Positions 1,311-53,222 of a DNA stretch of 64,000 nucleotides are shown here, piece by piece. The notes under the pieces were generated by a model. The model was not told the DNA's origin. It ran no database searches and worked only from the letters and a program-made list of their open reading frames with translations. Numbering within the stretch: position 1 is the first letter of the stretch; each line of letters begins with the position of its first letter. Position numbers and translations under genes: made by a program. The stretch lies in the IMG/VR virus record IMGVR_UViG_3300037313_001331; one strand, written 5' to 3'. The DNA is from a virus (taxonomy: Duplodnaviria; Heunggongvirae; Uroviricota; Caudoviricetes).

Positions 1311-1946
1311 CTACAACGTGGCGGCGAATGCGACCAGGGCCTCGTCGTTCTTCAGGCCGGTGGCAGCTTCGGCTTTCGCCATGAGGTTGGTGATTGCGAT
1401 CTGGCCGGCGGCCGAGATGTCCTTGAACCCGAAGGCCCGGGCCAGCGACACCTTCGACGCGGCGGCGGTCTCGATGCGGGTCTCGATGTCGGCCCGCTGC
1501 TCGGCGACCACCTTGTCCATGTCGTCGACGAATGCGCCCGGGTTGATGGCCCCCAGGTCGGCGTCGAGGAACTCCAGCTCCTTCGCGTCGAAGATGCCGG
1601 TGAGGTCCATGTCGATAGCCGCCAGCTCCGCCTTCAGCATCTCGGGGTCGATGTCGGAGATCGCCACGCGGTTGTCGGCGACCCGGGCGGCCTTGACCTG
1701 GTCGTCGCTCAGGTCGTCGCGCACCAGCACCGGCACCTTGTCCAGGCCCAGCTCGATGGCGGCCAGGCGCCGGCCGTGCCCCTTGATGATGATGCCGTGC
1801 TTGTCCACGACGATGGGCACGTCCCAGCCGAAGCGCTTGATCGACTCGACGATCTTCTTGACCTGGTCCTTCTCGTGCTTCTTGGAGTTCAGCTCGTATG
1901 GGATCAGGTCCTTGACCGGACGCATTTCCAGCTTCGGGGTCTTCAT
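1311..1946 (-). CDS. ParB-like nuclease domain protein
   Basis: ParB N-terminal-like block KDLIPYELNSKKH...GHGRRLAAIELG; start at MKTPK with RBS. Confidence 0.7.
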   Translation of the reverse strand: MKTPKLEMRPVKDLIPYELNSKKHEKDQVKKIVESIKRFGWDVPIVVDKHGIIIKGHGRRLAAIELGLDKVPVLVRDDLSDDQVKAARVADNRVAISDIDPEMLKAELAAIDMDLTGIFDAKELEFLDADLGAINPGAFVDDMDKVVAEQRADIETRIETAAASKVSLARAFGFKDISAAGQIAITNLMAKAEAATGLKNDEALVAFAATL

Positions 1947-2323
1947 GCGTCGGCCCTCCCGTTCAGCGTTGCGCAAGCGAAGCACTCGTAGCGGGCACGG
2001 CCGAGAAACACGCTGCCGCAGCGGTTGCAGTTGAGCGTGTCCTTGCGCCCTTCCTTCACGTCCGATGGCCAGTCGCGCGGTGTCAGCGTCGGTTCTGCCG
2101 GGGTCTTCTCGACCTCGAACAGCGCGACGCCCCCCGGGAAGTCGGGATCGGGTGCGATCACGAACTCGGCCGGCTTCCCGTCACGCGGGTTGAGCACGGA
2201 CAGGTAGATCTCGCCCTTGTCGTTGCCGCCGAACGCTGTGATCTTGGCGCCTACCAGGCGCCAGATGACGTGGTCACCGTAGTCGGCTTCTGCCTGCTCG
2301 GCCGGGTTCAGTGCGTCGCTCAT
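1943..2323 (-). CDS. hypothetical protein with C-terminal Cys zinc-ribbon-like motif
   Basis: ORF with CNRCG...CFAC; ATGA overlap with downstream gene. Confidence 0.5.
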   Translation of the reverse strand: MSDALNPAEQAEADYGDHVIWRLVGAKITAFGGNDKGEIYLSVLNPRDGKPAEFVIAPDPDFPGGVALFEVEKTPAEPTLTPRDWPSDVKEGRKDTLNCNRCGSVFLGRARYECFACATLNGRADA

Positions 2324-2326
2324 GAC

Positions 2327-2551
2327 TCAGAAGAAGGTGGGTTTGGCCACGGCGCGGGTCAGCGCCATCAGACCGGTCTGGAAGTCGGTGGCGCCGATGG
2401 ACACCCAGCGCTGATCGAGGTTCGGCGTGGCACGCAGCCGCTCGATGAGCGCGCCCAGCTCGGCTCCCTTGGCCTTGATCTCGTTCATCAGGTCGATCTC
2501 GACCTGGTCCAGCTCGCGGTAGCCCGCGATCTTTCGGTGTTGGTTGTCCAT
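2327..2551 (-). CDS. hypothetical protein (74 aa)
   Basis: start MDNQHRK overlaps stop of upstream gene (TGATG). Confidence 0.5.
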   Translation of the reverse strand: MDNQHRKIAGYRELDQVEIDLMNEIKAKGAELGALIERLRATPNLDQRWVSIGATDFQTGLMALTRAVAKPTFF

Positions 2552-2748
2552 CAGCTCTTTCCTCCTTGAATGCACGCGAGCACGACTCGCGGCGGTTGTT
2601 GTGTTTCTTGCTGCACGAGGTCGCCGACATCGCGCCGGGCGTCATCGATGCTGTAGCCCTCGTAGTCCTTCGGGAACTCGACGTAGTAGCTGGTCACCGA
2701 CCCGTCGGCACGACGCGCACCGATCAGTGCCCTCACGGTTTCGCTCAT
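2551..2748 (-). CDS. hypothetical protein (65 aa)
   Basis: MSETVRAL start at ATG 2748 overlapping stop of upstream small ORF (ATGA). Confidence 0.5.
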   Translation of the reverse strand: MSETVRALIGARRADGSVTSYYVEFPKDYEGYSIDDARRDVGDLVQQETQQPPRVVLACIQGGKS

Positions 2749-2912
2749 TGGGGCACCTCGATCAATTCGTTGCGCACGCGCATGAACCCGTCTTCGCCGA
2801 TCTCGATGAGCGATTCGTCCAGCTCGTAGCCGTCGGCGTTGTCGCAGTCCCCGCACACCACCGGGTCCTCGCGGTGGAGGCAGCTGTTGCAGCTCGGGAA
2901 CTTGTCGCTCAC
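2745..2912 (-). CDS. small Cys-rich zinc-ribbon-like protein (55 aa)
   Basis: manually translated: GTG start after GAGG SD, CNSC...CGDC, ends in ATGA overlap; below ORF-track cutoff. Confidence 0.4.
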   Translation of the reverse strand: MSDKFPSCNSCLHREDPVVCGDCDNADGYELDESLIEIGEDGFMRVRNELIEVPQ

Positions 2913-3580
2913 ATCACCTCCCGGGCGGCGCTCACAATGGCCACCAGCGCCATGCCGGCTGCGACCATCGAGTCCTCTTCGGCCTTGAAGCCGTTGGTCT
3001 TCACCACGTGGGAGATGAAGGCCTCGACGCGCGCCTGGTCCTCGACGGGCACCTTGAAGCGCATCAGGGCGTGGGTGATGGTTGGGCGCTCGGGCTTTTC
3101 CAGCGTGGGGATGGTTTCCTCGCCCTTCTCTTCGTCATCGAGGCCCAGCATGTCGAGGTCGATGCTGTCGGCCGCGAAGATGCCGGCCAAGTCCTGCTCG
3201 GTGTAGGGCAGGAACTTGGTCACGTCCTCCCCACCCAGGTCCTTCAGGATCTCGCCCAGCTTCAGCGCGTCGTCCTCGCCATACCGGCCGTTGTCGGCCA
3301 GGCCGATGGCCTTGGCTTGGCTGTCAGGGATGTGGCCCAGGTTGACGTAGGGCACCTCAGCAATGCCCATGCGCTGGGCGGCCCGGGTGCGGTGCTCGCC
3401 GCCGAGGATCTGCAGCGACCCATCGGGCAGCTCGCGCACAACAATGGGCTTGTAGAAGCCCATGCGCCGAATGCTCTCTTCGAGTCGGGCCTCCATTTCA
3501 GGACCCACCACGTTGCTGTTCCAAGGGTTGGGAAGCAACGTCGCGGGCGCTGCGTATCGAATCTCGATGCGGCTTGTCAT
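2909..3580 (-). CDS. ParB/Srx-like nuclease domain protein (second copy)
   Basis: LLPNPWNSN...ILGGEHRTRAAQRMG ParB-like N-terminal motifs. Confidence 0.65.
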   Translation of the reverse strand: MTSRIEIRYAAPATLLPNPWNSNVVGPEMEARLEESIRRMGFYKPIVVRELPDGSLQILGGEHRTRAAQRMGIAEVPYVNLGHIPDSQAKAIGLADNGRYGEDDALKLGEILKDLGGEDVTKFLPYTEQDLAGIFAADSIDLDMLGLDDEEKGEETIPTLEKPERPTITHALMRFKVPVEDQARVEAFISHVVKTNGFKAEEDSMVAAGMALVAIVSAAREVM

Positions 3581-5657: not shown

Positions 5658-5738
5658 CTCAGCAGTCGCTTATTGCTAACTCAGCGGGTGCTGACTACCT
5701 ATAATGGGAGTCTCACCCGCTTAGTATTTGGAGACTGG

Positions 5739-7485: not shown

Positions 7486-8123
7486 GCGGTGGCTGGCACG
7501 AGGGCGGCATCGTGTCGGATGACGTGGCCGACGGAATGGCCTATGCCTGGGGCGTCGGGAAAGACCCCTGGAGGCTCAAAGTCGCTGAGGGCGCGGGAGA
7601 GCCTTTCGTTCGCAGTCTTGGCGACAAGGTGGGTTCGGGAGAAGCGGTCGTTGACACCGAATACCGGGTGTTCACTTCGGGGCGACGCGCCGGCAAGACA
7701 GTGCGATGGTCGGCTGGTGCTCCAATTCACGTCACCGTGAAGGTCGATGAAGCCATCGCGGAAATGGATGCGGCGAAGAAGTCGCTGAAGGCTTTTGTCG
7801 ACGCAGAGCTGCGCAGACGAATGCTCGATGCTGTGAGAGAAACGGTCGGGGTCTTCGATGAATTGCCCTGGCCTGCGCGACGGGGCTATGGTGCCGGCGC
7901 GAAGCCGATGCTGGCGCGGGACTTGGCCACCACCGAGGTCGACATGCGCGGCATGATGGTGGTGAACTCAGACCGCAGGGAGTGGGCGGAGAGAAGCGCC
8001 ACAGACGATCTGAGCAGACGAGCATCACATCGGGCTGCGGCACGCGTGAAGCCCAGCCCGATGCTCGCGAAGTTACTCGACCGACACGAACTGATCAACG
8101 ACGACAAGCGGGGTACGTGGTGA
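7482..8123 (+). CDS. hypothetical protein
   Basis: GTG start overlapping upstream TGA; same frame as ORF-track 7167..8123. Confidence 0.5.
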   Translation: MSGGWHEGGIVSDDVADGMAYAWGVGKDPWRLKVAEGAGEPFVRSLGDKVGSGEAVVDTEYRVFTSGRRAGKTVRWSAGAPIHVTVKVDEAIAEMDAAKKSLKAFVDAELRRRMLDAVRETVGVFDELPWPARRGYGAGAKPMLARDLATTEVDMRGMMVVNSDRREWAERSATDDLSRRASHRAAARVKPSPMLAKLLDRHELINDDKRGTW

Positions 8124-9385: not shown

Positions 9386-10051
9386 TTACTCGCTCTTTTC
9401 GCCCCCGATCTCTTCGAGTTGACCCATGGTTGCAGACTCGACCAGGGAGACAAACGCAGTGACAAGGGGGTGTTCCCGGTTCAACTGCACCATGCGATCA
9501 TGGGTCTTGTGCTTCGCAGCAGTCGCACCCAGGGCATCGCAGAACCCGTTGTCACCCCACGTGCGAGACTTCTGCGTGGAGACCGTGTTAGCCCCCACCC
9601 GTGCGAACATCTTCGCAAGACGGGCCCGAGAAACGCCCTTGGTGTCACCGGTAGCACCATCGACACGGGCATACCCTGCGATGAGCACGTGCAGGGAGTC
9701 ATAGCTCAGCGCCCCCTCGGGGGACAGGTGCAGCGCGTACAGCCCGCATGCGGTGGTCGCGTCGATGTTCTTGTAATTCTTTTCGGTGATCGCGTTCACC
9801 ATCTGGATCGCCCGCTTCACCTGCTTTTGGGGAAGGGAAAAGAGGGTCTTGAAGTCGATCCCGTAATCTTTCATCGCGACGAAGGTCGATTCGACGAAAG
9901 CGAACTTGCCCTTGTCTCTGAGGACCGCTTCGATGTCTTTGGACGCTGCTGCGCGGTGGGCGGTGAGCACTGCGCGGGCTTCAGCGTAGGTGTCCCCGTT
10001 CTTGTTGGGACGGGCTGCACGCGGGGCGCGGGGGGTGGTGGTCTTGCTCAT
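9386..10051 (-). CDS. hypothetical protein
   Basis: 221-aa ORF; class A box about 24 nt upstream of ATG. Confidence 0.55.
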   Translation of the reverse strand: MSKTTTPRAPRAARPNKNGDTYAEARAVLTAHRAAASKDIEAVLRDKGKFAFVESTFVAMKDYGIDFKTLFSLPQKQVKRAIQMVNAITEKNYKNIDATTACGLYALHLSPEGALSYDSLHVLIAGYARVDGATGDTKGVSRARLAKMFARVGANTVSTQKSRTWGDNGFCDALGATAAKHKTHDRMVQLNREHPLVTAFVSLVESATMGQLEEIGGEKSE

Positions 10052-10084
10052 GGTGTGTACCTTTCAAAGTGTGTGTCAGTAGTG

Positions 10085-10096
10085 ACTGAGTGTCCC
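10085..10096. promoter_or_regulatory. class A box
   Basis: GTCAGTAGTGAC with a TGTGTG flank; 24 nt before ATG 10051. Confidence 0.5.
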
Positions 10097-10770
10097 GGTT
10101 AAATGTGTGATGCACCGGGGACAGGGAGATAGTCTCACGTTAATACCTCTGTCGTCAACAATGTTATTAAAGTAGAAACCCTTAGTCACTGCCCCTTCCC
10201 TGCGCTCGGAGGTCGGCTGACAGAAGGCGCGAGGCGGGCGCACGCGACTACCGGAGTGCGCTGGGCTGGCGAAGGAGGGACAACCCGAGGATGGGGTTTC
10301 CAGGGAGGAGCAGGCACTCACGTGGGTAGGCGCTAAGGAGAGTGCCCGCTGACATCCGACCCCGGGCTCGGCGCGTCCTAGGCCCTCATCAAGGAGCGCA
10401 GCCGTACTCCTAGGCTCCCGTCATGGAAGCCCGCCGTACATCGACGGGCTCGGCACCAGGCGCTCAGCGCTGGCCCTGGGTGCGCTGCAGGGTGTCCCGG
10501 CGACGGTCCGGGGCTGCAGCGATGGCGCGGCGCAGCTGCCTGCCCTGGCGGCGCTTGTTGCGCTCGGCGAGGTCTCGCTCCAGCTCGCGCTCCAGGGTCT
10601 GGTAGAACCGCTCGAATTCACTGTTCATGGAGCGTTCCTCAGTGAATCCAGCACACGGGGCGGTGTTCCGCGATGCACTGGACCACCTGGTCCTCCATGA
10701 CGGTGTCCCACACCACGCGACCAGGCGTGAGCGAGTACAGGTAGGCACGCAGCAGCATGACGGCCGCCGG

Positions 10771-10929
10771 TCATGCGAAGCGTGGAGCACGGCCCAGCAG
10801 GATCTGGTGCGCTTCCTCGAACGTGGCCTGGCGGTTGCGGAGGTACCCGGCAGCGGTGCGTGTGCCCAGGCTCTTCTGGATGGCCAGCGCCTTCTTGATG
10901 ATCTTGGTGAGTTGGCTTTGCAGTCCCAT
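10771..10929 (-). CDS. small ORF (50 aa), possibly the remnant of a disrupted gene
   Basis: manually translated; class B box then AGGGGAA then ATG; two further small ORFs follow in other frames. Confidence 0.3.
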   Translation of the reverse strand: MGLQSQLTKIIKKALAIQKSLGTRTAAGYLRNRQATFEEAHQILLGRAPRFA

Positions 10930-10951
10930 GGCGTTCCCCTGTGTGGTGGGT

Positions 10952-10990
10952 GTTGCGATGGGAGTGACTTTCTCGACCGGGCGTCGGCTA
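10952..10990 (-). promoter_or_regulatory. class B box copy 1
   Basis: GTTGCGATGGGAGTGACT plus GC hairpin CGACCGGGCGTCG; on the minus strand it precedes ATG 10929. Confidence 0.5.
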
Positions 10991-11211
10991 TGGTGGGCCT
11001 AGCCTGCGGGAGCCTAGGACCCGTGTGAGCCTGAGAAAAGTGGGCCTAGGACGGGCCTGAGCCTCATTGGTGTCCGAAATCTGTGCACGGACTTCGGACT
11101 AGTGAATTGTTCGGAGGTGACTCGGCGTATCTCCGAGTTTTTCACTACTCGGAGCGGTCAAGGCGAAGCCTATTCTCTGTCGAGGCACGCAGCCGTACCT
11201 CGCCGAGGGCC

Positions 11212-11502
11212 TCACGCCACCTTGGAGCCCTTGATCACGGTGAACCCGACCTTTGGCAGCGCCTTCAGCTCGACCTCCTCGACCTGCTGGAGCAGGAGCT
11301 GCGCACTGCCGATCTCCCAGCCTAGGCGCTCGAAGGTCCTGTCGATGGCCAAACGAAGTTCGGCCGCTGCAATCGGGGTCGGATCTGTGGTCGTGGACTG
11401 GATCGTCATGACCTGGAACGTGCCGTGGTGGTCCGTGTAGGCCACGCGCATGCTGAGGTTGGGCTCCGGGAAGCGCCCGGCGTCGATGTCGCGCTGGGGC
11501 AT
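11212..11502 (-). CDS. hypothetical protein (96 aa)
   Basis: GGTGGAG SD; start overlaps stop of the upstream 77-aa ORF. Confidence 0.4.
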   Translation of the reverse strand: MPQRDIDAGRFPEPNLSMRVAYTDHHGTFQVMTIQSTTTDPTPIAAAELRLAIDRTFERLGWEIGSAQLLLQQVEEVELKALPKVGFTVIKGSKVA

Positions 11503-11504
11503 GG

Positions 11505-11738
11505 CTACAACTCCACCGAGGCGTCGGTGACGCGCTCTGCCTTCAGGAGCTTCATCCCCATCGCCGGGAACGTGTGAGCCGCGCTGGCCCTCACTCCCTT
11601 GTCCAGCACGTCGGAATCGACCGTGGCGGTGCTGATGATGGTCCAGAGATGCCTGCTGCCGTTGTTGTCTTCGATCAGCGCTCTCAGGATGACTCGTTCG
11701 TTCGGGTACTGCGGATTCTCTTGCTTCGGACTACGCAT
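11505..11738 (-). CDS. hypothetical small protein (77 aa)
   Basis: C-terminal part of a longer Arg-rich ORF; manually chosen ATG. Confidence 0.3.
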   Translation of the reverse strand: MRSPKQENPQYPNERVILRALIEDNNGSRHLWTIISTATVDSDVLDKGVRASAAHTFPAMGMKLLKAERVTDASVEL

Positions 11739-13056
11739 GGGGACTTCAACTGCCTGGTGTACTGCTCGGAGGTGCCTCGGGCCAGGGAGCGCTGAGCCTA
11801 GGACGGGTGGATTCTCGGTCAGCCTCTGGTGGGCGGGTGGACATGAAACGGTAAGGATTGCCGATTGTGTGCGCGTCGTCACAGTCGGACGCACCTTTTC
11901 AGGACGTTTAAGGTAGGAGCCAGAACCCCTGGCGCCTGGAAGGTCGTTTCGATTGATCTCACGATTGGCGCCACCCCTATAAGCCAACTTACAGGTAGAC
12001 CCACACCTGGCCCCACAGCCAGACCCCTGCCTGTCCCTCTCTGCGGCATGTGATCCACCAGCCTGAGCCTCCCTATGGGTGAGCCTGTGCGTGTTGCCTA
12101 CCCTCCCCTTGGAGCATCTGCGAGCCTGGGTGTCTCTGTTCGTTGCCCGGCTCGTCCTGCCCCTCTTCCGTTCGGTGGTGCTACTGCCGGTGATCGCTCC
12201 GGGTGCTCTTCTGCTCACGACGCTTGCCCCTTTCCTCATAGGTGTTTCCTGCTGTATCTGCAGTCTCGGCGCTCGCTAGCTCACTGGCTGAGCCTGGGCT
12301 GTTCGGGGCCTGGTTCGGGTGTGGCGTTTCACCGGTTTGCGGGATGGGCTGCTCGCGCCATTCCCTTCTGGGAATCGGTGCAGCTCATTCCCTTTCGGGC
12401 ATTGCCGTGCGGTGCGCCTGGTGGTCGGCGGGCTTCTTGGGGCGCTCCAGCTTGTTGGGTTGGGGCTCGGGTGCTCGTTGCGTTGCGAATCGTCTGCCTT
12501 GCGCTCGGCGTGCGCTGCCTTCCCGTGCTTTATGCGGCGCTTTCTGTCTTCCCTGGTGATTTCTTCGGGGCGAAGCCGACATCTTCGACAGGTCCTGCAT
12601 ATAAGATGAATTGAGCGGACAAAAAGCCTTATAAATCAACAACTTACGAGCCTAGGCAGGAGTTGCACAAAATGAAGCCGCCCAACCGTGAAGTTGAGCG
12701 GCCCGAAGACTCGTTGGCATCACTCTCGGAGTCGGTTCACACACACGTGGTCGCAACACCGCAGTGTGGGCAGAGCCTGGTGCTTGTCAGGCGCTCTCCA
12801 CACCACCCAGGTCCACCTGCCCCACACTCAAGGGAGCTTCGGACCTGGCCTATGGGCGGGCCGTCGGGGCTCTTCACGTCCCCATGGCTAGCCACCGGGC
12901 AGGCGGCCTTCGTTCAATGACTCAAGGATTGCTGACGGATGTCAGGCGTGCCTGCTGTTCAGCGCCGCAGGCTTGCGGTGCCCCTTCTTGTGCTCTGGGG
13001 CTGGGATTCTCTTCGTCGTGTTCCTCAAGGTGTTGATGGCAAGTCGGATCAGCGCT

Positions 13057-13272
13057 TCATCCGGCACCTCCCTTCGCTTCCAGGGCTTTGTTGATGTTCT
13101 CAATGCGTTGGGTCCAACCGGCGGCTCGCATCGTGATCGTGCGGCGATGGTTCTCACGCACGTCCTCAGGCACTCGGCTTTCCAGCGTGCCGAGAAGTCG
13201 CCCCTCCTGGTCCAGATGGGCCTGGGCAACTCGGCGTTGAGCCAAGAGTTGCTCACGGGTGTAGTCGCTCAT
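13057..13272 (-). CDS. hypothetical protein (71 aa)
   Basis: ATG after GGGAG. Confidence 0.45.
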   Translation of the reverse strand: MSDYTREQLLAQRRVAQAHLDQEGRLLGTLESRVPEDVRENHRRTITMRAAGWTQRIENINKALEAKGGAG

Positions 13273-16348: not shown

Positions 16349-16566
16349 TTCTCCTTGGTGTAGGTGCGAATTTCCACCACGTCGCGCTCGGCACGCAGAT
16401 AGGCTTTCGCCGCTTCGATGTCCTCATCGGTGTGATGGGGCTCTCTGTACAGCGCGAACCCAGCGCCTGCACTGCTCGCAAGCCACCAGTCGTAGGCGAC
16501 GCCATTCGGCGTCGTCAACCCGTAGCGCTTCGCCTTGACCAGGTCGGCATCGGTGAAGGTCTTCAT
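16345..16566 (-). CDS. hypothetical protein
   Basis: ATGA overlap chain. Confidence 0.45.
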   Translation of the reverse strand: MKTFTDADLVKAKRYGLTTPNGVAYDWWLASSAGAGFALYREPHHTDEDIEAAKAYLRAERDVVEIRTYTKEK

Positions 16567-24737: not shown

Positions 24738-25964
24738 ATGCCCCGTCACACCCTCGTCGCCACCACTTTGAAGGCGAAGATCGAAGCCGCACTGGCGGCT
24801 GCCAAGGACTCCCAGAAGGCCCAGAAGCTGGGCGACGGCGACGGGCTGATGCTGGTGGCCCGCCCCAGCGGCGATGCCTCGTGGGTGCTGCGGTACCGCC
24901 AGGATGGTGCACGAAAGGACCTGACCCTGGGCCGGTGGCCAACGCTGACCCTGAAGATGGCGCGGGACGAAGCGGACAAGGCCCGCAAGTCTGCCGCCAC
25001 CGGCGTCGACCCGGTCGAGGCGAAGAAGGCGGCCCGCAAAGCGCGCCCCGGCGTGGCATCGGGCCCGGACACGGTCAGGCGGCTCTTCGAGGACTGGCGG
25101 GCCAAGGAAGAGGTCAGCGCCGTCTACGCCGGCAACATCGAGGCGGCGTTCCTGAAGGACGTGCTGCCTGTCATCGGCGCCGTGCCACCCGAGGACGTGA
25201 CCCGCGAGCAGATCCTGAAAATCCTGCGGACCATCGAAGGCCGGGGCGCCGTCGACATGGTCCGCCGGGTTCGCATGTGGATGCGGCAGATGTTCGAGTT
25301 CGGCATCGAGGACGAGAGCCGCCCTGCCCTGCGCATGTCGCCGGTGCCGATGGGGACGCTGAAGTCCTTCAAGAAGTCACGCAAGAAGCGGCACTACGCG
25401 GCCATCAAGGACGCCAAGGAGGTGCCGGCGCTGATGAAGGCGATCAAGGGCATCACGGACAACTTTGTCATCCGGAACGCCTTCCTGCTGTCGGCGCACA
25501 CGTTCCAGCGGCCGACCGAGATTCGCGAGGCGACCTGGGACGAGTTCGACCTGGACGCAGGCATCTGGCGCATCCCCGCGGAGCGCATGAAGCTGGCCGG
25601 CGAGCACTGGGTGCCGCTGTCGCGCCAGGTGGTGGAGATCCTGCGCGTGCACAAGGGCGTGGTGGGAGATCAGGGCTGGCTGTTCCCGGGCCGGAAGTAC
25701 GGCCAGTCCATCTCCGAGGGCACGCTCACCGGCCGCCTGAACAACATGGGGTTCGAGGGCCGTCACACGCCTCACGGGTTCCGCGCGATGGCGCGGACCA
25801 TCGGTGAAGAGGTCCTGCACATCGACGCCAAGTACCTGGAGAAGCAGCTTTCACACGAGGTCGATGTGAGCGGGCTGCGGGGCGCCTACAACCGGGCGGA
25901 GTACTGGGACCAGCGGGTCAAGATGATGCAGAAGTGGTCGGACTGGCTGGACGCTCAGACATGA
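24738..25964 (+). CDS. int: tyrosine integrase (P4-like, N-terminal arm-binding domain)
   Basis: N-terminus GDGDGLMLVARPSGDASWVLRYR; C-terminal HGFRAMARTIG...RAEYWDQR catalytic region. Confidence 0.85.
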   Translation: MPRHTLVATTLKAKIEAALAAAKDSQKAQKLGDGDGLMLVARPSGDASWVLRYRQDGARKDLTLGRWPTLTLKMARDEADKARKSAATGVDPVEAKKAARKARPGVASGPDTVRRLFEDWRAKEEVSAVYAGNIEAAFLKDVLPVIGAVPPEDVTREQILKILRTIEGRGAVDMVRRVRMWMRQMFEFGIEDESRPALRMSPVPMGTLKSFKKSRKKRHYAAIKDAKEVPALMKAIKGITDNFVIRNAFLLSAHTFQRPTEIREATWDEFDLDAGIWRIPAERMKLAGEHWVPLSRQVVEILRVHKGVVGDQGWLFPGRKYGQSISEGTLTGRLNNMGFEGRHTPHGFRAMARTIGEEVLHIDAKYLEKQLSHEVDVSGLRGAYNRAEYWDQRVKMMQKWSDWLDAQT

Positions 25965-26134: not shown

Positions 26135-26160
26135 GTCAGTACTGAGTCATTATAGGGAGC
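26135..26160 (-). promoter_or_regulatory. class A box plus conserved -10-like box
   Basis: minus strand GGCTCCCTATAATGACTCAGTACTGACTGAG upstream of alpA. Confidence 0.5.
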
Positions 26161-37422: not shown

Positions 37423-37716
37423 GCTCCGACCTTTCGCTTGCCGGCTTCCAGCCAGCGCATGGAGACGTAGTGCATGGACACCGATCCGGTGACCGTGCCT
37501 GCGATGTAGATGGCGCCCAGACCAGCCAGCTCCAGCAGGGTGCGGCCCTGCATGGTCACCAGCCCGATCAGAAGGATGTTCGTGACGAAGAAGATGCCGT
37601 TGCTACAGACAGACGCCGCGGCGTGGTAGGTGAGACTGCCTGAGTTGCGAGCGCGACTGACCCACGTGAACGCGGCACTCTGCAGAACCAGCAGGAGGAA
37701 CCAGGCAAACAGCATC
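37419..37716 (-). CDS. membrane protein
   Basis: internal ATG (MLFAWFLLL...); hydrophobic. Confidence 0.4.
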
Positions 37717-37930
37717 ACCAGGCTCCAAACCAGCGGCCAACGCCATGAACGATGCCGATGGGGAAGAAGATCGCGCCGGCGACTAGAAAGCCCCACATGC
37801 CCGCCTTGAAGCAGATGACCAGGTGCGTGAGCCAGCCGCCCAGAATCGCGATCAGCAGGCAGACCGGCAGCACGAGGGCACCCACGCCGCCCAGGAGGGC
37901 GCCAATGAAGCGAAGAACGGAGCCGGTCAT
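37715..37930 (-). CDS. small membrane protein
   Basis: internal ATG (MTGSVLRF...); two TM-like segments. Confidence 0.4.
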   Translation of the reverse strand: MTGSVLRFIGALLGGVGALVLPVCLLIAILGGWLTHLVICFKAGMWGFLVAGAIFFPIGIVHGVGRWFGAW

Positions 37931-38415
37931 CGCTGCACCGCCTGACGAGAGACCTTGCTGCTCGGGCCGCCGGTGCGAACCGCGGGCTTGAGGCCGTCCT
38001 GCTCCGCCTCCTTGACCACCTTGAGACGCACGCCATCGACGAACTGCGGGTCGGGGTTGGCGTCGAACATCGCCGTCTTCTTCTTGGGGATCACGTCGTA
38101 GTAGACGCAACCGTTGAGGAACGTGGCGCGGGCGGTGGCAACACCTTCGAGGCCCGTGACGGTATCGCGCACCTTCGAGCCCAGCGGGATGGGGGCGGCT
38201 GTCGCCTTCGTCGCGCGGGCTGACACGCCGGCGTCAACGAAGTTCAGCATGTGGGCGTCGATGTACTGCGCCTCGGGCATCACGTTCTCGCCCTCCTTGT
38301 TGCGGGGCTGCACGGCGTACTGAATGTTGCCGCTGAGCATGTCCCGGCGCTGAATCGCGATGCCGCGAAAGCCGGTGACGGCGTCTTCCACCGTCGATCC
38401 AAGGTCAAAGTTCAT
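37927..38415 (-). CDS. tandem-repeat protein (two ~70-aa repeats)
   Basis: repeat GxxVxDxVTGxxGxAxxR...GxxxY twice; ATG 14 nt after the tRNA 3' end with AAAGGA SD between. Confidence 0.5.
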   Translation of the reverse strand: MNFDLGSTVEDAVTGFRGIAIQRRDMLSGNIQYAVQPRNKEGENVMPEAQYIDAHMLNFVDAGVSARATKATAAPIPLGSKVRDTVTGLEGVATARATFLNGCVYYDVIPKKKTAMFDANPDPQFVDGVRLKVVKEAEQDGLKPAVRTGGPSSKVSRQAVQR

Positions 38416-38429
38416 GGGGTCCTTTCGAT

Positions 38430-38507
38430 TGGGGACGGCGGCAGGACTCGAACCTGCGACCAAGTGCCTGTTCGGCACGATTGCTCTACCGCTGAGCTAC
38501 GCCGTCC
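38430..38507 (-). tRNA. tRNA-like gene, His-type acceptor (G-1:C73, encoded CCA) but non-canonical anticodon arm
   Basis: canonical D arm and T arm, 7-bp acceptor plus extra 5' G; anticodon region GTGCC-GAACA-GGCAC has a 5-nt loop or G33. Confidence 0.55.
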
Positions 38508-40274: not shown

Positions 40275-40286
40275 CCCTAGGGCGCT

Positions 40287-52663: not shown

Positions 52664-52933
52664 TCAGTGGTAGTCCGAACAGCGGTGTGGAAGAAATGCC
52701 ATCGGCACGAATTCGACTCGACAGCCTTCAGGTAGCAGCCGCTCGACGATGGATCGATTGGAGTTGCACTGAGGCGAACCGGTGCTACTCGGCCTGAGCT
52801 TGAAGAACAGCGCCTCGTTCTCCGGAGTGATGGCCCAGTACCTTTCGCCCATGCAAATGCGACCGGACTTCGGGGTCGTGATGTCCGAGAGGGGCACCCG
52901 CACGAATCGCGGGTCAGACAACGACAGCGGCAT
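52664..52933 (-). CDS. hypothetical protein
   Basis: 89-aa ORF. Confidence 0.4.
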   Translation of the reverse strand: MPLSLSDPRFVRVPLSDITTPKSGRICMGERYWAITPENEALFFKLRPSSTGSPQCNSNRSIVERLLPEGCRVEFVPMAFLPHRCSDYH

Positions 52934-52934
52934 G

Positions 52935-53222
52935 TCAGGCGTCCTCTGAGATCTCGTGCAGGCCGCCGCGGGCGGTCAGGCCCCAGCTGCGCTTGGGCAC
53001 ACGGTCACCGCCAGGGCCTTGCCCGTTCAGGAGAGCGACGATTGCGGCCTTGTCGGTCGGGATCTCCAGCTCGTCGATGAAGGTCTCGCCGTAGTAGGGC
53101 TTGGGCGAGAGCTTTGCCTCGGTGTGGGCGCCGCCCTCGCCCGTGAGGTTGGCGCAGTAGCTGGCCGGGTAGAGGTTGTCGCCGCAGGCGGCTTCAGGCC
53201 GGGTCACACGAAACACTCGCAT
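52935..53222 (-). CDS. hypothetical protein
   Basis: 95-aa ORF. Confidence 0.4.
   Translation of the reverse strand: MRVFRVTRPEAACGDNLYPASYCANLTGEGGAHTEAKLSPKPYYGETFIDELEIPTDKAAIVALLNGQGPGGDRVPKRSWGLTARGGLHEISEDA

Follow-up and report, generated by a model that had tools for sequence, protein, structure and literature searches.

Clustered CCTAGG and GAGCCT repeats around small operons of an uncultivated temperate phage: a candidate conserved cis-regulatory region

Among phages with multiple operators, the CI repressors of lambda and 186 act at paired, looping sites, and P1 C1 and mycobacteriophage L5 gp71 recognise many asymmetric sites of 13–17 bp; on plasmid RK2, KorB acts at a distance from its OB sites. 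Here we describe an interval of IMG/VR record IMGVR_UViG_3300037313_001331, a 64-kb stretch of DNA (the window; GC 64%) from an uncultivated temperate phage, in which CCTAGG and GAGCCT repeats are clustered around small early-type operons. We favour reading the interval as conserved cis-regulatory DNA, in which operators or upstream sites are arrayed for a phage DNA-binding protein assisted by integration host factor (IHF), and give this a probability of roughly 0.42. The interval is the best candidate for the control centre of a lineage of ~110-kb DnaE-encoding temperate siphoviruses, and it offers defined sites together with a candidate regulator, the adjacent winged-helix protein p221. The lineage is to our knowledge little studied, and we know of no description of how its early transcription is controlled or where its lytic replication starts.

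The hexamer CCTAGG occurs eight times in the window, at 10377, 10409, 11013, 11045, 11321 (inside gene p96), 11797 and 12651, with one outlier at 40276. Seven of the eight lie within 10377–12656, and the chance of finding at least seven of eight in a given 2.28-kb span is 6e-10. There are four copies of GCCTAGGAC against 0.13 expected and nine of GAGCCTRRG against 2.8 expected, and GAGCCT, which is 18.7-fold enriched in the non-coding stretches relative to the rest of the window, is found there ten times on the plus strand and once on the minus strand. Alignment of 38 sites from the window and its relatives gives the consensus GAGCCTAGGA(C/T), with counts of G22 A28 G34 CCTAGG A23 of 38, and only the central 6–10 bp are symmetric (CCTAGG, at some sites AGCCTAGGCT). 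An earlier sequence-only reading of this DNA had placed clustered repeat motifs here, and they are confirmed, with coordinates shifted by 0–5 nt; its count of eight or more TGAGCCT copies at 11010–12290 was too high, the exact heptamer being present only six times in the interval. The principal elements are as follows.

10372–10420, minus strand: a pair of CCTAGG-core sites (GGGCCTAGGACGCG and GAGCCTAGGAGTAC) at 32-bp spacing, which follow the p54 stop codon by 49 and 81 nt
10389–10439, plus strand: two copies of the repeat family TCA(A/T)GG-N6-GCCGTAC
10996–11064, plus strand: array upstream of the p52 start, with GGGCCTAG, GAGCCTAGGACCCG (11010), GAGCCT (11027), GGGCCTAGGACGGG (11042) and GAGCCT (11059); distances of its full sites to the p52 start codon, 83 and 115 nt
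11791–11807, plus strand: CCTAGG-core site 58 nt ahead of the p77 start (GAGCCTAGGACGGG), on a 58-bp segment not present in relative L047
12621–12648, plus strand: IHF-type site AAAAAGCCTTATAAATCAACAACTTACG, an A-tract, 8–9 nt and then AATCAACAACTTA (12634–12646)
12645–12660, plus strand: CCTAGG-core site GAGCCTAGGCAGGA, adjoining the IHF-type site, an adjacency also seen in relatives L052 and L050

These elements are arranged around transcription units. Unusually long spacers separate the small operons p52-p39-p54 and p77-p96, and every spacer has an asymmetric GAGCCTAGGA(C/T) site and additional GAGCCT half-sites in one orientation. Among 24 intergenic sites in five genomes, 11 lie 58–115 nt upstream of the next start codon (three at exactly 87 nt) and 12 lie 42–88 nt downstream of the previous stop codon, and the sites therefore bracket individual small operons; the suggestion that this is a regulatory region agrees with these positions. 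Both site pairs (10377/10409 and 11013/11045) are spaced by 32 bp, and they are inverted, facing each other across the p52 operon and sharing a perfect 13-nt inverted repeat, TCCTAGGCTCCCG. A segment invertible between the paired sites was considered and rejected, as all independent contigs and relatives show a single orientation.

A third copy of TCA(A/T)GG-N6-GCCGTAC is located at 11180–11198, 13 nt downstream of the p96 stop codon. The composite of this repeat following CCTAGG is also found in L047, L049, L050, L052 and L003, and AGCCGTAT is present at operon ends in a Cupriavidus plasmid described below. The shorter element (C/G)AGCCGTA(T/C), often preceded by TCA(A/T)GG-N6, lies 13–80 nt downstream of minus-strand operon ends in all relatives, including those without CCTAGG, and has no hairpin potential.

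About half of the interval is coding. Five minus-strand genes are supported by GC-frame analysis and by a codon log-odds model, which agree, and by matching gene calls made by independent pipelines on other contigs.

10464–10628, minus strand: p54, 54 residues, supported by GC-frame and codon scores and a JGI call
10639–10758, minus strand: p39, 39 residues, supported by coding score and present in a protein collection
10771–10929, minus strand: p52, 52 residues, predicted three-helix protein (AlphaFold2 pLDDT 90)
11212–11502, minus strand: p96, a paralogue of p77, carrying the CCTAGG at 11321
11505–11738, minus strand: p77, coupled to p96

The description of the interval as a 2.6-kb low-coding region holds for the gene-free segments 10052–10463, 10930–11211 and 11739–12941 and fails for the five coding stretches between them. 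The p52 family is new and widespread and comprises 172 unnamed proteins of 45–50 residues (~47 as a rule), a few of them in NCBI records, that share the motif LGxRxAAGYLRNxG and end where p52 ends. It matches no Pfam, PHROGs or NCBIfam model, and comparison of the p52 model with PDB folds gave no significant match (best E 2.6 or worse). The sequence-only reading had taken p52 (as a 50-residue frame) and two following frames to be one gene split by frameshifts. We reject this, as each small frame is conserved separately: the family ends alike, and the C-terminal motif of p39 is conserved in L049 and L047. The frames of p39 and p52, described as different in that reading, are one and the same, with a TGA plus 12 nt between the two genes (10759–10773). 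Readthrough from p52 into p39 is not needed, given that p52 homologues end at the p52 stop. The proposed coupled pair at 11505–11738 and 11212–11502 is supported by coding signal and by the paralogy of p77 and p96, a similar pair being present in L050 and L052. On these comparisons p54, p39, p52, p96 and p77 are separate conserved small genes, and the region is not a decayed one.

Relatives were found through homologues of the helicase and of p221 as syntenic loci in which p221 identity ranges from 81% down to ~36%. In addition, a 106-kb circular plasmid of Cupriavidus metallidurans ZM16 (NZ_CP090528.1) carries phage structural genes in the same gene order, with a p221 that is 30% identical. 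Clusters of CCTAGG are present in L047, L049, L050, L052, L001 and L003, only next to p221, with no sites elsewhere in the 11–20 kb sampled per locus; no cluster was found in L038 or in the Cupriavidus element. The six genomes with clusters have a GC content of 53–63%, the strand of GAGCCT is kept, and there are no long intact genes at the syntenic place. Taken with their clustering and strand specificity, this conservation makes the repeats look functional, and the invariance of CCTAGG across genomes of 53–64% GC suggests that a protein recognises it.

Three successive single-gene units of L001 have the motif 9 nt upstream of a −10-like GATAAT, and L050 has three AGGCTC repeats at 9–10-bp spacing just upstream of a promoter-like TATAAG. 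L001 also contains a hexanucleotide microsatellite, (GAGCCT)14 at 16446–16548, directly after a full GAGCCTAGGA site, and beyond it a series of single-gene units, each with a near-identical upstream region and a GGGGCCGAAGCCCC terminator. Such an arrangement would be expected if the sites were the boundaries of promoter/terminator regulatory cassettes flanking small operons and serving as substrates for homologous shuffling, rather than sites for a protein, and the bracketing of operons at both ends and the variable gene content between persistent motifs can be read in the same way. However, homologous exchange would not be efficient over a shared core of only 10–14 bp, the copies differ in their flanks, and the constancy of CCTAGG despite the range of base composition favours a bound protein; we think it very improbable that cassette exchange accounts for the sites.

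The IHF-type site at 12621–12648 is the most deeply conserved non-coding piece of the locus. Its core AATCAACAACTTA is the only exact match to WATCAANNNNTTR in 64 kb, and AAAAA at 12621–12625 precedes the core, as in H′-type sites; the H′ spacing is that of the H′ 35-mer. The element is 96% identical in L003, where it is on the opposite strand, and is present in L014, L015, L052, L050 and L054 (a Cupriavidus locus), so that it occurs in either orientation. An IHF consensus with an A-tract in the other half-site has been described for the lambda H′ site (10.1101/382655). The relatives infect Proteobacteria, and binding and bending by host IHF is predicted here from sequence. A form with 18 specified bases, AAGCCTnnnAAATCAAnnACTTA, has at least 120 exact matches in unrelated IMG/VR contigs (loci L057–L176), and half of the loci among the matches listed carry two or more copies of the core. 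Conservation across at least 120 unrelated phage contigs extends to positions outside the IHF consensus (AAGCCT, and AC before TTA). IHF preference alone may not explain this, and the element may be more than an IHF site. A sigma-54 promoter at 12651 was rejected, the GG-to-GC spacing read from the sequence being 2 nt too short.

We propose that the asymmetric sites and half-sites would be bound by one phage-encoded sequence-specific protein that would set expression of the small operons, upward or downward. The 32-bp spacing within pairs corresponds to three helical turns, and pairs inverted around the p52 operon would permit cooperative binding and looping; the IHF-type site beside the CCTAGG at 12651 would bend the DNA and bring the distal site to the promoter-proximal ones. 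The putative promoters of the small operons have no −35 consensus, which fits dependence on a bound factor. Candidate binders are p221, with its winged helix, and two ParB-N proteins encoded at 1311–3496. A Cro-like helix-turn-helix role for p52 at CCTAGG was rejected, as it has no PDB match and its presence does not track the motif.

Several observations weigh against an operator array. The distance from CCTAGG to the putative −10 varies (9, 40 or 52 nt), and a sigma-70 scan found no promoter at the small operons. The binder is represented only by candidates (p221 and the ParB-N proteins): p221 may instead bind a palindrome, GTCAGTnnTGAC, that precedes its own gene in every relative, and p52, as a possible binder, does not co-occur with the motif: L049 and L050 have sites but no p52, and L038 has p52 but no sites. 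The model also does not explain why GAGCCT keeps one orientation over more than 1 kb, nor the 0.5-kb stretch of A-depleted DNA described below.

The involvement of the ParB-N proteins could take another form, in which CCTAGG sites are parS- or OB-like loading sites from which these proteins would act at a distance to silence the early region or organise it. The family retains both ParB_N proteins and the ATPase next to them, and a locally clustered motif with a palindromic core at variable distances from promoters would suit them. However, only 6–10 bp are symmetric, compared with the 13–16-bp palindromes of known parS and OB sites, the neighbouring ATPase is ABC-type and not ParA-type, and the Cupriavidus relative keeps both ParB-N genes with neither a CCTAGG nor a GAGCCT cluster. 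We regard ParB-type loading as a slim prospect.

The segment 11739–12941 is the largest gene-free segment in the window, and its composition is conserved without conservation of sequence. The following features lie in it.

12026–12600, plus strand: A-depleted stretch, 3–9% A per 100 nt, with GAGCCT at 12065, 12081, 12122 and 12290
12590–12650: second AT-rich patch, GC ~47%
12675–12704, minus strand: hairpin with a 13-bp stem and T-rich tail, with equivalents in L052 and L050, the likely terminator of the upstream minus-strand gene array

The window, L052, L050 and the Cupriavidus element share an order of features that begins at the promoter-proximal side of the p77-type operon and continues with three or four GAGCCT repeats (other short repeats in Cupriavidus) and 450–500 nt with 1–9% A on the plus strand. 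It ends with an AT-rich element, a CCTAGG site (there is no CCTAGG cluster in Cupriavidus) and the terminator hairpin of the upstream array. All six frames of the A-depleted stretch are open because every stop codon, on either strand, needs an A on the plus strand, and the T-poor strand, which reads in the direction of the flanking genes, has no start codons. Only one other span is similarly depleted of one base: at 37626–37975, inside minus-strand genes beside the tRNA-Val gene, T on the plus strand falls to 9% or less in 300 nt. An Hfq/Crc sponge RNA was rejected, as ARN and AAnAAnAA motifs are not above composition, and so was a conserved protein in the gap, for which the tblastx matches cross stop codons and reflect composition, and the T-poor strand is without starts.

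A gap with this layout could be the lytic replication origin, with GAGCCT(AGG) as initiator sites, the AT-rich patch at 12590–12650 and the IHF-type site as the bending and unwinding region, and p221 as initiator, transcription through the G-rich, A-poor strand aiding opening or priming. The layout is kept in every relative, including the circular Cupriavidus phage-plasmid, and combines short direct repeats in one orientation with the sole IHF consensus match in 64 kb beside an AT-rich patch and with an adjacent winged-helix gene. The assumed origin of pBBR1, an AT-rich cassette with direct repeats, also has the core AAATCAACAACTTA (PMC7236105), and in several unrelated phage contigs repeats such as TTGCACA flank the IHF-type element. 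As it has a DnaE, a helicase and RecA-like and gp32-like proteins of its own, the phage needs its own start site somewhere. However, the sites track operon starts and ends, and the repeats, which had been called iteron-like, are real, clustered and strand-specific but do not form a compact array of regular 17–22-bp iterons; they measure 6–14 bp and are dispersed at irregular 9–42-bp spacing over 2.3 kb among three operons. The DnaA box (TTWTNCACA) has no match in the 64 kb, fold searches linked p221 to no known initiator and gave only a generic winged helix, and rightward forks would meet 50 kb of minus-strand genes head-on. In the Cupriavidus plasmid the replicon, TrfA at 89 kb with a MipZ/ParA-like ATPase, is 54 kb from the equivalent gap. 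A plasmid oriV was rejected on this ground, and as the plasmid replicon lies elsewhere and an integrase has the equivalent role in the window, any origin here would be a lytic one, which we consider unlikely, if well short of negligible. The pattern suits binding sites that belong to transcription units better than it suits a single origin, and the operator or upstream-site reading is therefore ranked first.

It is also conceivable, and to our mind rather improbable, that the one-orientation GAGCCT repeats, ~0.5 kb of near-A-free DNA, H′-type IHF site and CCTAGG of the gap form a previously undescribed functional unit of the family. For example, transcribing the G-rich, A-free strand could open a lytic origin there, or the unit could be a long ribosome-free leader gating early transcription.

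The A-depleted part may hide a plus-strand gene for a small, very hydrophobic membrane protein, for example of the exclusion or moron type and expressed from the prophage, which would be compatible with either the operator or the origin reading. All of F, L, V, C, W, G, A, S, P and R can be encoded without an A, and a protein rich in transmembrane (TM) segments at 64% GC gives such a composition. In L052 a 163-residue open reading frame (ORF) on the plus strand in window orientation (locus 7583–8071, minus strand) lies within the gap of that relative and runs against all its neighbours; it has three predicted TM segments, was called by one pipeline and has gene-like periodicity (chi2 23–25 per 180 nt, compared with 20–36 for real genes). 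The window has an ORF at 12079–12279 (66 residues, two TM segments) with weak 3-periodicity (chi2 14–16, p 0.015–0.03) and T enriched at codon position 2, and L047 has an ATG at the equivalent position, both frames beginning M-S-L. However, the periodicity vanishes over 12280–12590, the ORF lacks a Shine-Dalgarno sequence (CCTCCC precedes a GTG), and no protein similarity (z ≤0.9, or the same in all frames) links the candidates in the window, L052, L050 and L054, with no plus-frame tblastx match. The gap ORF was never called on contigs carrying the sequence, nor by PGAP in the Cupriavidus plasmid. The gene would oppose all its neighbours and would have a promoter (TATAAG at 11978) and terminator to itself. 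On this evidence such an ORF is plausible in L052 and weakly supported at 12079–12279, and a hidden gene is on the whole doubtful. A further plus-strand ORF of 82 residues at 12672–12920, between the IHF-type site and the end of the minus-strand array, has AGGAG 10 nt before its ATG and is followed by a plus-strand terminator-like hairpin (12962–12981); it gives a weak coding signal, has no conserved counterpart in L052 and was never called.

At its other end the region is bordered by p221, and it includes several further non-coding elements.

9386–10051, minus strand: p221, conserved, 221 residues, with a C-terminal winged-helix DNA-binding domain
10075–10086: palindrome GTCAGTAGTGAC, 24 nt upstream of the p221 start
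10121–10190, minus strand: AT-rich island, GC ~45%, with a TTGACG hexamer at 10148–10143 (minus strand)
10225–10345: non-coding block ~95% identical to L047 against a background of ~72%
11099–11145, plus strand: terminator-like hairpin and T-run from a terminator scan, conserved in L047
11880–11975: non-coding block GTCACAGTCGGAC...TTCAGGACGTTTAAGG...CGATTGATCTCACGATTGG, nhmmer E=2e-14 to L047 only

Fold and sequence searches with p221, our candidate regulator, return a generic winged helix only, with no link to Rep, TrfA, RepC or lambda O. The AT-rich island remarked on earlier at 10130–10190 is real, GC being 45–47% around 10050–10200 against 64% overall, in a block conserved in L047. It lies 70–140 nt upstream of the p221 start and is probably the p221 promoter region rather than an unwinding element, although the consensus sigma-70 scan found no canonical site in 10121–10190. 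The blocks at 10225–10345 and 11880–11975 have nhmmer matches in L047 and in no other relative, and their consensus fold, from two sequences only (window and L047), gives no usable covariation. Rfam 15 models had no match at E ≤ 1 in the span 9900–13200, and a structured RNA was rejected on these two grounds.

A palindrome GTCAGT..ACTGAC precedes p221 in all seven relatives, the Cupriavidus plasmid included. More generally GTCA-N4-12-TGAC is found 23 times in the window (11.7 expected), mostly just upstream of genes. The 12-bp form GTCAGTnnTGAC, often extended to ACTCAGTCAGT..ACTGACTGAGT, is located in short intergenic 5′ regions genome-wide (1289, 3605, 5415, 9335, 10075, 15541, 22436, 28929, 34777, 34847, 50874, 57128, 61286, 63574 and 63864) and would serve either a global regulator as its operator or transcripts as a stem-loop in their 5′ part.

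Within the window the repeat region lies inside a block of minus-strand genes, ~5 kb from the helicase/ParB module. In a codon-usage gene map all genes of 9112–63786 are on the minus strand except the integrase and a low-scoring plus-strand call of 55 residues at 52782–52949.

1311–1946 and 2909–3496: two ParB-N proteins, conserved in the family, 7–9 kb from the region
24738–25964, plus strand: tyrosine integrase, essentially the sole plus-strand gene in the 9–64-kb block
38430–38506: tRNA-Val gene

The ATPase adjoining the ParB-N genes matches ABC_tran and is conserved in the family. Apart from the tRNA, covariance models of Rfam 15 gave nothing at gathering score in the window. Other window proteins include a DnaE-type polymerase, ribonucleotide reductase, SbcC-like, SbcD-like, RecA-like and gp32-like proteins, a flap endonuclease, ThyX and the helicase. 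The polymerase is only ~41% identical to those of Rhizobium phage RHEph10, Pseudomonas phage nickie and Stenotrophomonas phages. Megablast against cultured phages gave no nucleotide match to the window, tblastn of p221 and p52 against cultured phages gave no match, and p221 was not found in species-representative genomes. The phage is a member of a family of temperate siphoviruses with ties to RHEph10, nickie and the Cupriavidus phage-plasmid group, and the lineage has been linked to phage-plasmids (PMC7969092, PMC4447125). The lysogeny module is swapped between members: the position of the window integrase (24738–25964) is taken in NZ_CP090528.1 (L056) by a plus-strand island at 86477–90499 with genes for a helix-turn-helix regulator, a MipZ/ParA-like ATPase and TrfA, and a RepC-like protein is the counterpart in pLM21S1 and RHEph10 (PMC4447125). 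The Cupriavidus metallidurans 106-kb circular element also codes for Hfq.

Two further sets of short sequences were noted in the window. CTGGTGG, which matches seven of the eight bases of E. coli Chi, has 35 copies where 13 are expected. Beyond 19 kb these follow the coding strand for the most part, but six of the eight copies between 9 and 18 kb are on the non-coding strand; we do not treat it as a signal, as the excess mostly tracks the coding strand and CTG-GTG are common codons. A promoter-like GGCTCCCTATAAT, with a −10 hexamer, a conserved GC-rich 5′ flank and no −35, is found in intergenic gaps on the gene-bearing strand at 26149, 34869, 36156 and 40263 (minus strand) and at 5700 (plus strand). 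The apparent T7-like promoter TATAGGGAGCC at 26151, 34871, 36158 and 40265 is its reverse complement on the gene strand and was rejected; the sequence is a −10-type element, with no evidence for a phage RNA polymerase.

Compared with described systems, the locus has partial likenesses to several. Iteron origins (lambda ori, pSC101, R6K and pBBR1) also combine repeats, an AT-rich patch, an IHF-type site and a winged-helix gene, and the presumed pBBR1 cassette shares the core AAATCAACAACTTA, but here the repeats are short, irregular and dispersed, there are no DnaA boxes, and p221 shows no detectable relation to Rep, O or TrfA. The IHF-type site has the A-tract and WATCAANNNNTTR core of the H′ site of lambda attP, but the integrase is 12 kb away rather than adjacent, and the element is also present in a relative without an integrase. 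RK2 KorB and OB provide a parallel in that a short, centrally palindromic site recurs at differing distances from several promoters (putative ones here) in a genome that codes for ParB-N proteins, but the symmetric part here is much shorter, there is no ParA-type partner, and the motif is missing from a relative that bears ParB-N. The PeSL cassettes of T4-type phages are likewise conserved short elements around small early genes in a variable region, whereas here there is no conserved unit of promoter and stem-loop and the core is only 10–14 bp.

The multi-operator phages (lambda, 186, P1 and L5) are the closest match. They differ in that the repressor has been identified, compared with candidates only here, and that their sites are spread genome-wide rather than confined to ~2.3–4 kb at variable promoter distances; the additional half-sites in one orientation over more than 1 kb are particular to this locus. 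A motif-binding protein, if found, would make regulation accessible to study in a whole group of environmental phages and phage-plasmids. As in the multi-operator phages, a short intergenic site is present in several copies close to promoters (putative ones here) and to the ends of operons; each copy has a symmetric core within an asymmetric sequence, and the copies are arranged in helical-repeat pairs and inverted sets that could loop.

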